From an uncultured Actinomycetota bacterium (lineage in GTDB: Bacteria; Actinomycetota; Actinomycetes; Frankiales; Frankiaceae): a DNA stretch of 64,000 nucleotides. Both the position numbers and the translations under genes were made by a program. The stretch spans positions 163,149 to 227,148 of the forward strand of contig CAVQCZ010000005.1 in NCBI GenBank assembly GCA_963711135.1. Direction: 5' to 3'. Positions within the stretch are counted from its first letter, which is position 1, and every line of letters starts with the position of its first letter. The notes under the pieces are model-generated. The model saw only the letters and a program-made list of their open reading frames with translations. It was not told where the DNA came from and did no database searches. Positions 21,747 to 27,952 of this stretch are shown here, piece after piece.

Positions 21747-22181
21747 CTAGCGGCGCTTGCCCAATCCGGGTAGCCCTCCGTTGACGAGCCGCGGCTGGGG
21801 CACCCGGCAGTCGGGGCAGACCTGCTTTCCCGGCACAGCTTCTTTCCGGTTGAACGCCCGGCCGCACCGGTGGCAGGTCACCCTCGCCCAGCGTTTGTGG
21901 CAGGCCGGGCACCGGGGCGTGCCGGATTCGGTGTTCAGCCTGACGTTGGCACTCGACTGGTGGCAGTCGGCGCACTCGTCGGCGATGGTTCGAAGCGCGC
22001 GCAGGGCGTGCAGGCGCCGCATCCTCGCTCGGGTTCGAGGATTGGGCAGCTGGTCGATCAGCTGCGCAGCTTCAGCGAGCTTGAGCCGAGCGGACCCGGA
22101 GCTGGCATCTGCGATGTCTTTTTCCGCGGCGATGAGTAGACCAAGGATCCGGCGGTCGTCTTCGCGCACGACAGTGCTCAT
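21747..22181 (-). CDS. 144-aa double zinc-ribbon protein (four CxxC pairs), unknown family
   Basis: The cysteine pattern is ...CADCHQ...CPACHKRWARVTCHRCGRAF...CPDCRVPQPRLVNGGLPGLGKRR. This is the intact reference copy for the remnants at 6032..6217 and 25026..25173. Confidence 0.6.
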   Translation of the reverse strand: MSTVVREDDRRILGLLIAAEKDIADASSGSARLKLAEAAQLIDQLPNPRTRARMRRLHALRALRTIADECADCHQSSANVRLNTESGTPRCPACHKRWARVTCHRCGRAFNRKEAVPGKQVCPDCRVPQPRLVNGGLPGLGKRR

Positions 22182-22244
22182 CGGCTACCCGTTGGGGCGG
22201 GTTGAATTCGGCGGTCTCTGGGTTGACGGTGCTTATGGGCGCTG
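22095..22244. repeat. Left copy of a roughly 150-bp direct repeat (5' end plus upstream region of the zinc-ribbon gene)
   Basis: It aligns by eye to 25026-25173 at about 93% identity (ggagctggc..gcgatgtc.ttttccgcggcgatgagtagaccaaggatccggcggtcgtcttcgcgcac...gggttgaattcggcggtctctgggttgacggtgc). Confidence 0.85.
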
Positions 22245-22541: not shown

Positions 22542-24962
22542 TTGCGTGCAAGGATCCGGGTAGCGCTCTCGCTTTTCGCAGGACTGACCCTTCTCGGTTC
22601 GCTCGCGGCCGTCGCGCCCGCGGCCGCGGCCGGTTCGTCGCCTTTCAAGATTTTGGTACTGGGTGATTCTTACTCCGCGGGCAATGGCGCTGGCGCCTAC
22701 TATGGTCCCGCCGGATGCTGGAGATCACACCGGGATTATGCCGAAGACCTGGCAAATATGGCGCGTAAGGCGCCGCACAATATGACTGTTGACGTCAAGA
22801 ATGTCGCCTGCAGTGGTGCAGTGACTGCTGATATCTTCAATAAAGAGAGTGGGCGTCCGGCAGAGTTAAACGCGGTGGACAAGTCCTACAACCTGATCCT
22901 GCTGACCATCGGCGGTAACGACGCCTACTTCGCGGATATAGTGCGGTACTGCCTGATCGCCACGACTCGAGACGGTGCCAATTGCAACCAAAATTTGGCG
23001 CGGGCGGAGTCACTGATCAACTCGGGGACTATCCAGCAACGGGTAACCAAGGTCTTGAAGGCGGTCTTGCAGCACGCCAGCCCTAGCGCCAACGTCGTGC
23101 TCTTGGGGTATCCGATCCTGGAAGGCGACACTTCCTACACCCTCCGATCTGGGCATGGAGGGCCCATCATTCAGGTCGGGCGACGCCTTCATGCGATCAG
23201 CTTGGCGGGTGAAAAGTCGCAGAGCGCCGCGGTGCAAGCCGCAAATGGGTCCTCGGGACACCGGGCGCGCTTCATCAGCGTTCAAGCGCTCTTCAACGGC
23301 CCTCCGTACCACGGCCTGTACGCCAAGAAGAACAACCCACACCGCTGGATGGTCCAGCCATGGATTGACGCGACATTCGCGAGCAAGGAAACCTTTTACC
23401 ATCCAAATCCCACAGGATGGAGCAAAGAAGCAACCTTGCTGTGGAGCGACGGCGTCATCTCCGGAAACGGTCCGTCGCCGCCGATCATCACGACCACCGC
23501 TCTGCCGGCGGCGGCGCAGGATCAGCCGTACACCACCGAGTTGACTACGTCTGACCACCGCGCCGGCAGCTGGAAGGTCACCACCGGAAGCCTGCCTCCT
23601 GGCCTGTCTTTGACCGGGTTCACGATCTCCGGTATCCCGACGACGCCAGGAAACTTCCCGATCACGCTGCAATTCACTGACACCGCCAAGCAGACCGCCT
23701 CTGTGGTTACCGCGATCAGTGTCGTCGGCACCTCCCCGGCGCCTGCCGGCGACGTCTATGCATGGGGCACCAATCCTTGTGGAGGCCTCGGGGATGGCAC
23801 GGCAACGAACTCCTTCACGCCGGAGAACGTCGCGAACCTCAACGGGATGAAGGAGATCTCCGTCGCTTACACGGACTTCCGCAGTGGCACCACCTGGGAG
23901 GTCTACGGGCTCAGAAGCGACGGAACGGTTTGGGGTTGGGGAACCTGCGGCGTAAAGGTCGATTCTCTCAGCCCAGTGCAGATCCCCGGGCTTGAGCACA
24001 TCGCCGATCTCCAGGTCAGTGCTGGACCCACGAATTATGCGCTCGCGTCAGACGGAACCGTGTGGGCTTGGGGCTTCAATGACGGAGGTGGCTTCGGCAA
24101 TGGCGCGCCGCTCGACGCTCAAGCGACCACAGCCTTCCAGATTCCCGGCCTGGCGCATGTCACTCAGCTGCTGGGCCTTGGAGAGGGCGGCTATGCCGTC
24201 GAATCCGACGGATCCGTATGGGGATGGGGGACTGTCGACGTGGGTGCCCCCGCGGATCCGGGCACGGGGGCGCTCCCTATCCAGAGCACTCCTATCCGGG
24301 TATCCGGGCTGTCCGGGGTGAGAAGCCTTTCTCTATACGACCAGGGTGCCAACTACGCGCTCAAGACCGACGGCACGCTCTGGGCCTGGGGCGACAACAC
24401 TTGGGGCGAGTTGGGTACCGGCAGCTCGAATACCAGCGACTCGGCGCCGATCTCCAATCCGGTGCAAGTCACGGGGCTCCACGACGTAGTCGCTGTCAAA
24501 CACGGAATCCAGGAGAACTACGCCTTTGAAAGCGATGGGAGTCTCTGGGTCTGGGGAACGATCCGTCAGGCCGGAGACGACGGAATAGCGGCTCCCTTGC
24601 TCTACCAGCCCACCAGAGTCCCGTCTGTTCCCGCAGTCGCGGCCTTCGACAAATATCCCCTGCAGGCCCAGGTCGTCCTCACGCGTAGCGGGCAGGTTTG
24701 GGAGCTCGGGACCGCGTTTGGTCAAGTGACCGGGCTGCCCAGCGTAACGTCCGTGACCTGCTGGAACGGTTGCTATGCGGTCGCGCAAGACGGATCCGTC
24801 TGGGCATGGGGATTGAACTACAGCTCCTGGTACCCACTCACCACGCAGCTGCCAGCGGACACGTACGACAGCCCGACCAAACTGGACGCCTTGTCCAACG
24901 TCGTGGACGTCTTTTCCGAAGGCAGGAACGTCTATGTCGTCACTGGCTCACCTACGGGGTAG
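22542..24962 (+). CDS. Secreted SGNH/GDSL hydrolase, He_PIG Ig domain and RCC1-repeat propeller protein
   Basis: A signal peptide is present. The GDSL block is FKILVLGDSYSAGNG. An Ig-like segment (LPPGLSLTGFTISGIPTTPG) follows. About seven RCC1-like repeats are visible (VYAWGTNPCGGLGDG, VWAWGFNDGGGFGNG, LWAWGDNTWGELGTG, and others). Confidence 0.85.
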   Translation: MRARIRVALSLFAGLTLLGSLAAVAPAAAAGSSPFKILVLGDSYSAGNGAGAYYGPAGCWRSHRDYAEDLANMARKAPHNMTVDVKNVACSGAVTADIFNKESGRPAELNAVDKSYNLILLTIGGNDAYFADIVRYCLIATTRDGANCNQNLARAESLINSGTIQQRVTKVLKAVLQHASPSANVVLLGYPILEGDTSYTLRSGHGGPIIQVGRRLHAISLAGEKSQSAAVQAANGSSGHRARFISVQALFNGPPYHGLYAKKNNPHRWMVQPWIDATFASKETFYHPNPTGWSKEATLLWSDGVISGNGPSPPIITTTALPAAAQDQPYTTELTTSDHRAGSWKVTTGSLPPGLSLTGFTISGIPTTPGNFPITLQFTDTAKQTASVVTAISVVGTSPAPAGDVYAWGTNPCGGLGDGTATNSFTPENVANLNGMKEISVAYTDFRSGTTWEVYGLRSDGTVWGWGTCGVKVDSLSPVQIPGLEHIADLQVSAGPTNYALASDGTVWAWGFNDGGGFGNGAPLDAQATTAFQIPGLAHVTQLLGLGEGGYAVESDGSVWGWGTVDVGAPADPGTGALPIQSTPIRVSGLSGVRSLSLYDQGANYALKTDGTLWAWGDNTWGELGTGSSNTSDSAPISNPVQVTGLHDVVAVKHGIQENYAFESDGSLWVWGTIRQAGDDGIAAPLLYQPTRVPSVPAVAAFDKYPLQAQVVLTRSGQVWELGTAFGQVTGLPSVTSVTCWNGCYAVAQDGSVWAWGLNYSSWYPLTTQLPADTYDSPTKLDALSNVVDVFSEGRNVYVVTGSPTG

Positions 24963-25025: not shown

Positions 25026-25173
25026 CCCGGAGCTGGCGGCTGCGATGTCCTTTTCCGCGGCGATGAGTAGACCAAGGATCCGGCGGTCGTCTTCGCGCAC
25101 AAAGTGCTCATCGGCGACCCGTTGCGGCGGGTTGAATTCGGCGGTCTCTGGGTTGACGGTGCATATGGCGCTC
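25026..25173 (-). pseudogene. Right copy of the direct repeat: a truncated, frameshifted 5' remnant of a third zinc-ribbon gene copy
   Basis: It encodes ..VREDDRRILGLLIAAEKDIAAASSG.. (copy 2 reads MSTVVREDDRRILGLLIAAEKDIADASSG). A 1-nt deletion sits just after the ATG. Homology ends after about 25 codons. Confidence 0.7.
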
Positions 25174-25742: not shown

Positions 25743-26206
25743 CGTGTTGATGTGGACGATCGGTCTGCGGAGATTTTAAGAGTGGCTGCAATCGTCGTTC
25801 CACCGTCACCGTCGCCTTCGCCTTCACCTTCGCCTTCACCTTCGCCGAAACTCACGGTGAAGTTGCCGCTGGCGACCATGTAATTGCCGACCTCGTCGAC
25901 GGCTGCGACGGTGGCGCCGAATCAGAGCCAGCGAGCTACATCTTCACGACCCGCCCTCTGGGGCACCCGTTCAGCTTTGGCTGCGAGCGTGTTCGATTGG
26001 GTCTGCCCAGACCCGTTCGACTTCCTGTACACGAACTGCAAGGCCACCGACTCTGAGCGGATGCGGATGGTCATCGACAACGCCTACGGGCGTCGGCTCA
26101 GCTACGAGCCACTCATCGGCGAGATGTGAGGGGACAGTCGAGGATCTTGGCCCTACGCTGGGTATTTAGGCGCGGTTATGTCTGACGTCAGGTCTATCGT
26201 GGACGC

Positions 26207-26746
26207 ATGACCAAGTACTCGGCAGCAGACGTGGCGGCCGAACTTCGCCGTGAACTTCCCGGTCTGGGCGAAGTGAAGCTGCAGAAGCTCCTGTACTACG
26301 TCCAGGGCCGCCACCTGCAGGTATACGGCGCTCCGGCGTTCGCTGATGAGATTGTCGCGTTCGATATGGGTCCGGTGGTGGCGAGTGTCTGGCGGCAACG
26401 AAACGAACCGCCCACGGGGCTGCCGATCGACGATGATTCGCTACTGCTCAGCATCGGATACGTCGTCAGCAAGTATGGACAGCTCTACGGCACTGCACTG
26501 ATCGATCGAACTCACCACGAGCGCCCATGGCGGGCGGCAGACGCCGAGCGTCGTCGTCTGGGGGCACGTTCGGCCCCAATTTCGATCGAGGTCATGCGGG
26601 AGTTTTTCATCGGGGAAGCAAGGGCCGAGCGAAAGATACCCATCGAGCTTTTTGAGCGGACGCGGTCTCTGCGCCTGGACCCTTTGCCGCCGCCAAACCC
26701 CGTCGATCCCGACAAACTGCTGAGCCGAGTTGACCAGGTCGTCTGA
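26207..26746 (+). CDS. Panacea/DUF4065 (SocA-like) domain protein, candidate PanA-type antitoxin
   Basis: The stretch VKLQKLLYYVQGRHLQVYGAPAFADEIVAFDMGPVVASVW matches the remembered DUF4065 core (KLQKLLYY.QG......PLF...I.A...GPV...). Confidence 0.7.
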   Translation: MTKYSAADVAAELRRELPGLGEVKLQKLLYYVQGRHLQVYGAPAFADEIVAFDMGPVVASVWRQRNEPPTGLPIDDDSLLLSIGYVVSKYGQLYGTALIDRTHHERPWRAADAERRRLGARSAPISIEVMREFFIGEARAERKIPIELFERTRSLRLDPLPPPNPVDPDKLLSRVDQVV

Positions 26747-27032
26747 ACCCTGGCGATTAGACGATCCCTCGGAGAAGCTAGATCGTTGGATAGCTGAGGA
26801 CGAACCGAGCGACGAACTACGCCGAGCCATCATCGTGTGGCTAGTGAGTTTCGATGATCCATACGTCGGCGAGCCTGACCCAGAGAATCCCGTTGCGTGG
26901 GGCGCTGTTGCGATGAAGCTGCCACCTAACGTGCAGATTCCCGACCAATGTGTCTATGTCGCTTACCGGGTGAGCGCCATAGAACGGCGCATTTTCATCG
27001 ACGGGATCAGCACCTTGCCATGGCCCGTCTAG
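26730..27032 (+). CDS. Candidate cognate toxin of the Panacea protein, family not recognised
   Basis: This is a 100-aa ORF with a TTG start that overlaps the PanA-like gene by 17 nt. Its C-terminus (VYVAYRVSAIERRIFIDGI) is faintly RelE/ParE-like. Confidence 0.4.
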   Translation: MTRSSEPWRLDDPSEKLDRWIAEDEPSDELRRAIIVWLVSFDDPYVGEPDPENPVAWGAVAMKLPPNVQIPDQCVYVAYRVSAIERRIFIDGISTLPWPV

Positions 27033-27226: not shown

Positions 27227-27952
27227 ATGCCGCGACTAAGGCAGCGCAGCCCGATGCGCGACGTTGACGTACTCCTGGACGACGCCGACGAGCAGCTCAA
27301 GCGCGTCCGCGACATGTATGAGGCAAGCCTGCAGGCAAAGGATGCTTCCGGTCCGCTTCAAGCTCGGATCAAGAACGTGCTTGAGAACCAGCGGTCAGCG
27401 CTGGATTACCTGGCGACGGCGATTACGAACCGGGACGGCAAGCAAGGTACGAAGCCGCAGTTTCCGTACAGCTTTGAGCCGGAAGAGTTCGACAAGTGGT
27501 TCGACAAGGCCATGCCCGGCGTGCGGGCAGCACGAGCCGATATCGCGGATGCGTTCCGTCGGCACCAGCCCTTCCAGCCGGGGCACGACTGGGTTAAGGA
27601 CTTGGCGGCCCTGACGAACGAAAACAAGCATCGGCAGTTGACGCCGCAGTCCCGCGATGAGACGCGGCAGATCGATACACGTCGCGGCGGAACGGGAGCG
27701 GGGGTTGTCTTCACGCCATATCAGCCTGGGAAGGGCGGCGTCTCGTTTGGCGGCGACCTCGTCATCAACGGGGTGCCCGTCGATTCGCAGACACTGTTGC
27801 CGATTGGTGGCGGTCCGAAGCCATATATCGAGACGATCTATGTGGACTGGCTGTTCGCCGACCCGCCGAAGTCAGCGCTCCGGACTCTGGAAGAGATCGC
27901 GGCAGGCATCCGTCCCGCAGTGGCAGACATCGTTCAGACGGCTGGCCTGTAA
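27227..27952 (+). CDS. Hypothetical protein of about 240 aa, unknown family
   Basis: The coding-like part begins at MPRLRQRSPMRDVDVLLDDADEQLKRVRDMYEASL... (ATG at 27227, or alternatively 27254). The track ORF upstream of this point, from 26948, overlaps the previous gene. Confidence 0.5.
   Translation: MPRLRQRSPMRDVDVLLDDADEQLKRVRDMYEASLQAKDASGPLQARIKNVLENQRSALDYLATAITNRDGKQGTKPQFPYSFEPEEFDKWFDKAMPGVRAARADIADAFRRHQPFQPGHDWVKDLAALTNENKHRQLTPQSRDETRQIDTRRGGTGAGVVFTPYQPGKGGVSFGGDLVINGVPVDSQTLLPIGGGPKPYIETIYVDWLFADPPKSALRTLEEIAAGIRPAVADIVQTAGL

Follow-up and report, generated by a model that had tools for sequence, protein, structure and literature searches.

This locus raises the question whether a gene for a Panacea-type protein and the small gene overlapping its 3' end form a toxin-antitoxin module and, if so, what kind of protein the putative toxin is. 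The initial annotation had proposed a PanAT-type module with a possibly new toxin and had named an 81-aa ORF upstream as an alternative partner. In the following, the Panacea protein is called PanA and the product of the overlapping gene is called the partner. The term "window" refers to the complete stretch of DNA that was analyzed (64,000 nt). The relevant features are listed here by their positions in the window; all are on the forward strand.

25884..26129 (+): upstream ORF (orf81), TTG start, 81 aa, 77 nt upstream of panA
26207..26746 (+): panA-like gene, ATG start, 179 aa (stop codon included in the coordinates)
26207-26626 (+): PanA folded core, residues 1-140, AlphaFold2 pLDDT 85-97
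26279..26530 (+): Panacea domain as matched by Pfam, residues 25-108 (Pfam envelope)
26627..26743 (+): PanA C-terminal tail, putative toxin-neutralizing segment, residues 141-179, pLDDT 50-57
26730..26746 (+): overlap of the panA 3' end and the partner 5' end, 17 nt
26730..27032 (+): partner gene, putative PanT toxin, 100 aa, TTG start, predicted RelE/ParE-like fold

The Panacea protein

The translation of the 179-aa ORF contains the core that had been quoted for it (VKLQKLLYYVQG ... FDMGPVV). Its assignment to DUF4065/Panacea was confirmed by an HMM check: the protein matches PF13274 (SocA_Panacea) with an E-value of 4.9e-13 and 50.4 bits (cut-off 25.7). The alignment extends over profile positions 1-112 of 113, and the match was reproduced on the genome. 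In the PHROGs collection, PanA matches phrog_1281 (E 5e-25). The gene is present as a single copy in the source genome. Some homologues show 66-71% sequence identity, and many show 36-50%.

SocA, a component of the type VI toxin-antitoxin system SocAB from Caulobacter crescentus, is a Panacea protein as well. The NCBIfam equivalog model for SocA (NF047745) scores 37.9 bits against PanA, far below its cut-off of 190. We thus consider PanA a Panacea protein which is not a SocA orthologue. The partner proved unrelated to SocB in all searches made, and nothing points to a mechanism as ClpXP adaptor.

The partner gene and its start codon

The 100-aa ORF overlaps the PanA ORF by exactly 17 nt, as had been stated. 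It had been described as having no nameable family, and this is borne out by the absence of matches in Pfam, NCBIfam, PADLOC, and PHROGs. The TTG at position 26730 is the sole in-frame start codon upstream of the conserved N-terminal motif, with W8, L10, D18, W20, P26, and V34 being conserved family-wide within the first 35 residues. In the public protein collection, the partner is present only as a 65-aa product (P0001), which starts at an internal GTG and corresponds to window positions 26835-27032. This product lacks the 35 N-terminal residues, which are conserved family-wide; the gene call is therefore too short, and the 100-aa reading is the correct one.

A word-indexed protein search with the partner retrieved only the window's own product (P0001). 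An exhaustive phmmer search against 1.8 billion representatives yielded a family of 15 representative clusters. Its named members are all annotated as "hypothetical protein" and are devoid of Pfam domains. No Pfam or NCBIfam model was matched by the window partner, and no Pfam model by any of 18 relatives, at E-values up to 1; both databases gave no match for the divergent relatives at loci L094, L112, and L096. When the partner profile was compared to the PDB sequences, only a chance match to MetRS (E 0.28) was obtained.

Conservation of the gene pair

An overlapping gene for a protein of 97-105 aa follows the PanA homologue in each of four metagenome loci (L001-L004). PanA identity is 66-71% and 49% at these loci, and the downstream genes show 60-68% and 26% sequence identity to the window partner. 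We searched for the pair more broadly from both sides. With the partner profile, matches were obtained in 11 of the 401 genomes that had been sampled from the whole class, and in 10 of 56 genomes from the order, including 3 of 13 from the genus. Altogether, the partner-profile loci number 16, located in 15 genomes of about 450 from Actinomycetota, and a PanA-type gene or a remnant thereof is found directly upstream in every case.

The PanA-based search used an alignment as query and returned 80 loci from named genomes; a search for related loci with the single PanA protein as query returned none. The partner is encoded directly downstream of PanA in 45 of the 80 loci. All 45 are from Actinomycetota, and the taxa include Micromonosporaceae, Pseudonocardiales, Jatrophihabitans, Geodermatophilus, Streptosporangiaceae, Nakamurella and, weakly, Acidimicrobiia. 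The more distant PanAs, which are largely from other phyla, are mostly not accompanied by the partner. Counting genomes and MAGs together, the pair is conserved in more than 50, which come from several actinobacterial orders. Locus L023 from genome G006 was omitted from the alignment, and none of the conclusions depends on that genome.

Gene arrangement is conserved as well. Where both genes are intact (42 loci), they overlap by 8 nt (27 loci), 4 nt (8 loci), 11 nt (2 loci), or 17 nt (only in this window), so that an overlap of 4-17 nt is seen in 38 of the 42. The partner starts with GTG in 31 of the same loci, with ATG in 5, and with TTG in 4. The in-silico definition of PanAT pairs requires two genes separated by no more than 100 nt, a shared architecture in at least two species, and the absence of a longer conserved operon (Kurata et al., 2022); the pair agrees with it in all three respects.

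The proposal that the 81-aa upstream ORF (25884..26129) is the real partner of PanA was not upheld. This ORF is on the same strand, ends only 77 nt upstream of panA, and has a high GC3 of 0.78. However, tblastn revealed no relative of it beside about 100 PanA loci, its only family match is a PHROG hit at chance level (E 0.13), and the conserved neighbour of PanA is the downstream 100-aa gene. We consider it extremely improbable that this ORF is the partner. Other neighbours in the window were tried as partners and rejected (orf167, orf234, the GDSL gene, and the CHAP gene), as they are not conserved beside PanA; at about 100 PanA loci elsewhere, no relative of orf81, orf167, orf234, the SGNH/RCC1 gene, or the CHAP gene was found next to PanA.

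Two loci from Acidimicrobiia MAGs carry divergent relatives of the partner (L094:3541-3828 and L112:3460-3744; profile E-values about 1e-4), which extend the family past the class Actinomycetes. The PanAs encoded upstream of them share a distinct tail. A different situation is found in a Nitriliruptorales MAG (L097:3522-3818), where a related PanA whose C-terminal tail differs considerably precedes an unrelated ORF of 99 aa. This ORF has no match in Pfam or NCBIfam, and a by-eye impression that it represents a canonical RelE was dropped for lack of such support. The locus may reflect swapping of partner and tail within one PanA clade.

The C-terminal tail of PanA

The PanA model consists of a confidently predicted core and a poorly ordered tail, for which AlphaFold2 suggests, at low confidence, two short helices (residues 146-155 and 168-178). 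The length of this tail correlates with the presence of the partner. In the 45 PanAs which are accompanied by the partner, the chain continues for 45-62 aa past the core (median 53), while the median is 12 aa in the 35 PanAs which are not. The tails from partner-bearing loci usually end in a helix resembling D-x-x-x-L-x-A-R-L, and L171 and R174 are invariant in a 12-sequence alignment (A3). These features are the signature of a neutralizing appendage that folds upon binding, and the neutralization step itself would be exerted by this segment.

Predicted fold of the partner

The partner was modelled with AlphaFold2 from an alignment of 18 sequences (pLDDT 89.1, pTM 0.78). The model starts with a short N-terminal strand, which is followed by two helices (residues 14-24 and 28-40) and four further strands (48-50, 53-64, 73-82, and 87-97). 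When compared to the PDB by Foldseek, toxins of the RelE/ParE superfamily (RelE, HigB, HP0892) occupy six of the seven top ranks and most of the first twenty. The matches include HP0892, HigB2, RelE2, RelE1, RelE from Escherichia coli, HigB, and PfiT. RelE2 from Mycobacterium tuberculosis (3g5o_B) is matched with a TM-score of 0.62 normalized to the query and 0.74 normalized to the target, an rmsd of 2.6 Å, and a Foldseek probability of 1.0. Because the Foldseek E-values are weak (0.02-0.06), the fold call rests on the TM-scores (0.46-0.74) and on the coherence of the match list. The PanA model served as a negative control and gave no coherent matches in the PDB. Also, nothing coherent was found when the partner model was compared to viral structures. 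In the ESM Atlas, the partner matched only unnamed actinobacterial clusters, apart from one weak RelE/ParE lead at 0.90.

The model shares with the RelE/ParE superfamily (PF05016 and relatives, e.g. M. tuberculosis RelE2, 3G5O; E. coli RelE, 4FXE/4FXH; Vibrio cholerae HigB2, 5JA8) the N-terminal strand, the helical hairpin, and an antiparallel sheet of three to four strands. RelE/ParE toxins resemble the partner also in their size of about 100 aa and in being encoded downstream of, and overlapping with, their antitoxin gene. However, the relationship is not detectable at the level of sequence profiles. An hhalign comparison of the partner with 15 PF05016 proteins from related genomes resulted in E-values of 0.085-0.096, which are not significant, although the alignment is collinear and places helix on helix and strand on strand. 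According to this non-significant alignment, the partner chain stops just past the last strand, whereas the canonical PF05016 proteins go on with a His-Arg...Tyr segment. The partner would belong to the RelE/ParE superfamily when judged by the fold of its predicted structure, but not when judged by HMM or profile-profile similarity. A further difference concerns the putative antitoxin, which is a Panacea protein in place of RelB, ParD, HigA, or Phd. On the basis of the model, we assign to the partner a predicted RelE/ParE-superfamily fold.

This result splits the earlier suggestion that the toxin may be new. The partner is indeed new as a sequence family, but its predicted fold is that of a well-known group of toxins.

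Acidity and conserved residues of the partner

The window partner is acidic (pI 4.3), and this holds for the complete family (median pI 4.9, range 4.1-6.5, n=60). In contrast, canonical PF05016 proteins from related genomes have a median pI of 10.4 (n=15). Conserved positions of the family are mostly Trp, Pro, or hydrophobic residues. The conserved polar positions are D18, D43, Y45, E83, R/H86, and D91, to which the cysteine pair C77/C90 is to be added, and R/H86 is the sole widely conserved basic position. The clade to which the window partner belongs is divergent at three of these positions, with C77 being replaced by V, E83 by A, and C90 by I.

These properties bear on the possibility that the partner is a genuine ribosome-dependent mRNA endonuclease of the RelE/HigB type which is neutralized by PanA. 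The best structural matches (RelE2, RelE1, E. coli RelE, HigB2) point in this direction, and catalytic residues vary widely within the RelE family. However, the net negative charge throughout the family, R/H86 as the only widely conserved basic position, and the missing C-terminal His-Arg...Tyr segment (in the collinear, non-significant alignment) argue against such an activity, which we regard as distinctly improbable. Because the family is acidic and lacks both a conserved Lys/Arg/His/Tyr set and the C-terminal segment, binding to a protein target, as is the case for ParE with gyrase, would be more likely for the putative toxin than a RelE-type mRNase activity.

We also considered a more far-reaching reading, namely that the family is an acidic and hitherto unrecognized branch of the RelE/ParE fold whose mode of toxicity is new and differs from ribosome-dependent mRNA cleavage as well as from the classical action of ParE. 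Such a toxin might, for example, act by sequestration or mimicry on a target that is basic or binds nucleic acids. The fold-upon-binding tail of PanA would keep it in check, with the Panacea core acting as the sensor of a trigger, e.g. phage infection. We consider this reading rather doubtful in its entirety. If the partner is toxic, its acidity makes the ribosomal A site an unlikely target, and the known roles of the fold would be broadened.

Decay of the pair

Loci with a damaged pair were analyzed separately for the two search directions. In the set ascertained through PanA, the partner is inactivated or missing while PanA is intact in about 11 of 50 tail-bearing loci, i.e. in about a fifth. 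The following types of damage were encountered in this set.

L079, L085: frameshift in the partner, PanA intact
L075: nonsense codon in the partner at the invariant W37
L053, L054, L084: truncation of the partner
L093: IS insertion in the partner
L092, L056, L070: internal or whole deletion of the partner
L116: fused remnant of both PanA and the partner

At L093 (3534-3950; an uncultured Actinoplanes MAG), the partner is broken after about 35 codons and is followed by a sequence which, by eye, resembles a transposase N-terminus. This suggests that an IS has inserted into the putative toxin gene.

In the set ascertained through the partner (16 loci), 12 pairs are intact. A frameshifted partner beside an intact PanA is found twice (L016, L017), and L134 is a remnant of both genes. 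The reverse constellation is seen at L132 (903-1499; genome G420, a 63%-complete MAG), where a variable loop of PanA is interrupted by an in-frame TAA while the partner is intact. Either the assembly is in error at this point or antitoxin dependence has a real exception here, which would then be a counter-example to the partner being lost first. Loss of the partner first is what is expected for a toxin gene. The observed asymmetry is only suggestive, because PanA was the search query for the larger set and many loci in that set are from MAGs; in the unbiased, partner-based set it amounts to 2 versus 1.

The frameshifts in L016, L017, and L085 are three independent events which fall into one short stretch just past the conserved DDPYxG motif and lead into the same new frame. 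This could indicate a mutational hot spot or could be due to chance.

The decay pattern has to be weighed against the possibility that PanA and its partner form a conserved module of two proteins which has no toxicity. The RelE/ParE-fold partner might have lost toxicity, or might never have had it, and might act as a regulator, an adaptor, or a binding partner of the Panacea protein. This would be consistent with the acidity of the family (median pI 4.9), with the absence of a conserved basic or catalytic set, with the lack of a sequence link to RelE/ParE, and with the intact partner beside a stop-interrupted PanA at L132. Also, Kurata et al. (2022; PMC8832971) reported eight predicted PanTs that had no toxic effect in E. 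coli, which keeps this alternative under consideration. It has to be reconciled, however, with a gene layout in which the antitoxin strictly comes first, the genes overlap, and start codons are weak, with a patchy distribution like that of mobile genes, with the inactivation of the partner beside an intact PanA in about a fifth of the PanA-ascertained loci, and with a predicted fold which is that of a toxin superfamily. We thus consider a non-toxic module unlikely, though worth keeping in mind.

We consider it reasonably likely that the pair is a PanAT-type (type II) toxin-antitoxin module which is neutralized through the PanA tail and was horizontally acquired. This part of the earlier proposal stands with respect to the Panacea gene, the tightly coupled and conserved gene pair, and its agreement with the in-silico definition of PanAT; toxicity, target, and neutralization are what we infer. 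The reading is carried by the domain identity of PanA, the conservation of the pair, the coupling of its genes, the predicted fold of the partner, and the co-occurrence of tail and partner. In such a module, panA would be translated first, and translation of the partner would be coupled to it via the 17-nt overlap and the weak TTG start. Because of this overlap and the weak start codon, less partner than PanA is probably synthesized. The role of the putative toxin would fall to the partner as a small, soluble protein of RelE/ParE-superfamily fold. PanA probably neutralizes it through its poorly ordered C-terminal tail of 40-60 aa, with the globular Panacea domain serving as a scaffold or sensor.

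Comparison with described PanAT systems

PanAT systems were defined by Kurata et al. (2022; PMC8832971), who predicted 1,268 pairs with 88 toxin clusters. Antitoxin-first order was the more common one, and most partners were annotated as "hypothetical". The module in the window agrees with these systems in several respects. Its Panacea protein is devoid of an N-terminal domain, its genes form an antitoxin-first, overlapping two-gene locus that is found in many species, and it is chromosomal, patchy, and mobile, with a partner that is annotated only as hypothetical.

The association of a Panacea antitoxin with a RelE/ParE-fold toxin has already been described as a kind. In the part of Dataset S1 considered here (Kurata et al., PMC8832971), at least three clusters (T14, T28, and a third one) have HHpred matches to RelE, ParE, HigB, or YoeB, and cluster T59 holds a partner which is annotated as RelE/ParE family toxin. 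The window partner differs from the described systems in being acidic and in having no detectable sequence similarity to RelE/ParE. Among the Dataset S1 rows listed, genus and strain names tied the partner family to none of the 88 T clusters.

A tail-based mode of neutralization has been demonstrated for a PanA from Corynebacterium doosanense. Its Phd-C tail neutralizes Doc, as was shown experimentally, and the term "linear neutralisation" was used (Ernits et al., 2023; PMC10440598). For the Panacea core, the same authors suggested a role as sensor. The window PanA has the same architecture of a Panacea core with predicted C-terminal helices that are characteristic of PanAs accompanied by one toxin type. 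However, its tail differs in sequence from Phd-C and is paired with a RelE/ParE-fold partner, and its probable role is deduced from co-occurrence and from a model of low confidence. That the tail tracks the partner supports the notion that Panacea proteins swap neutralizing appendages while the core is not re-evolved.

On the basis of sequence comparison and structure prediction, the module is best regarded as a new PanAT member from Actinomycetota that is well conserved, with a partner that is a sequence orphan, acidic, and RelE/ParE-like in its predicted fold. With it, the PanAT network gains a pair from Actinomycetota. For a family of unannotated "hypothetical proteins", with a miscalled start in the present case, a conserved genetic context and a predicted fold are now available, and a putative function can be tested. 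Two points seem worth an experiment: the acidity of a putative toxin with RelE/ParE fold, and the co-occurrence of tail and partner. Acidity is the sole unexpected feature, the module being otherwise an ordinary mobile toxin-antitoxin-like pair in a low-GC islet.

Genomic setting

The window is GC-rich (about 0.62-0.69) and actinobacterial in character. The panA-partner module is located in a stretch of lower GC, and its GC3 is 0.64-0.69, compared to 0.73-0.81 for the flanking genes. Horizontal acquisition fits with this lower GC3 and with the patchy distribution of the pair. No sigma-70-like promoter was found at the module, and one terminator-like site, which is at chance level, is located within the partner gene. 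Because sequence conservation among close homologues does not extend to the upstream region, we do not propose an operator. A look-up of sequencing runs for the region gave none.

Just downstream of the module, a 234-aa ORF (27248-27952, +) matches phrog_13652 (E 3.8e-9) but has no match in Pfam, NCBIfam, or PADLOC. In the ESM Atlas, it resembles unnamed clusters with a length of about 230 aa, most of which come from Pseudomonadota. On the upstream side, a gene for an 806-aa SGNH/He_PIG/RCC1 protein (22542..24962) is flanked by direct repeats of approximately 145 nt (22095-22238 and 25026-25168), which are 95-96% identical. The right repeat copy (25026-25168) duplicates the 5' part of a gene for a 144-aa zinc-ribbon protein, which is encoded on the minus strand.
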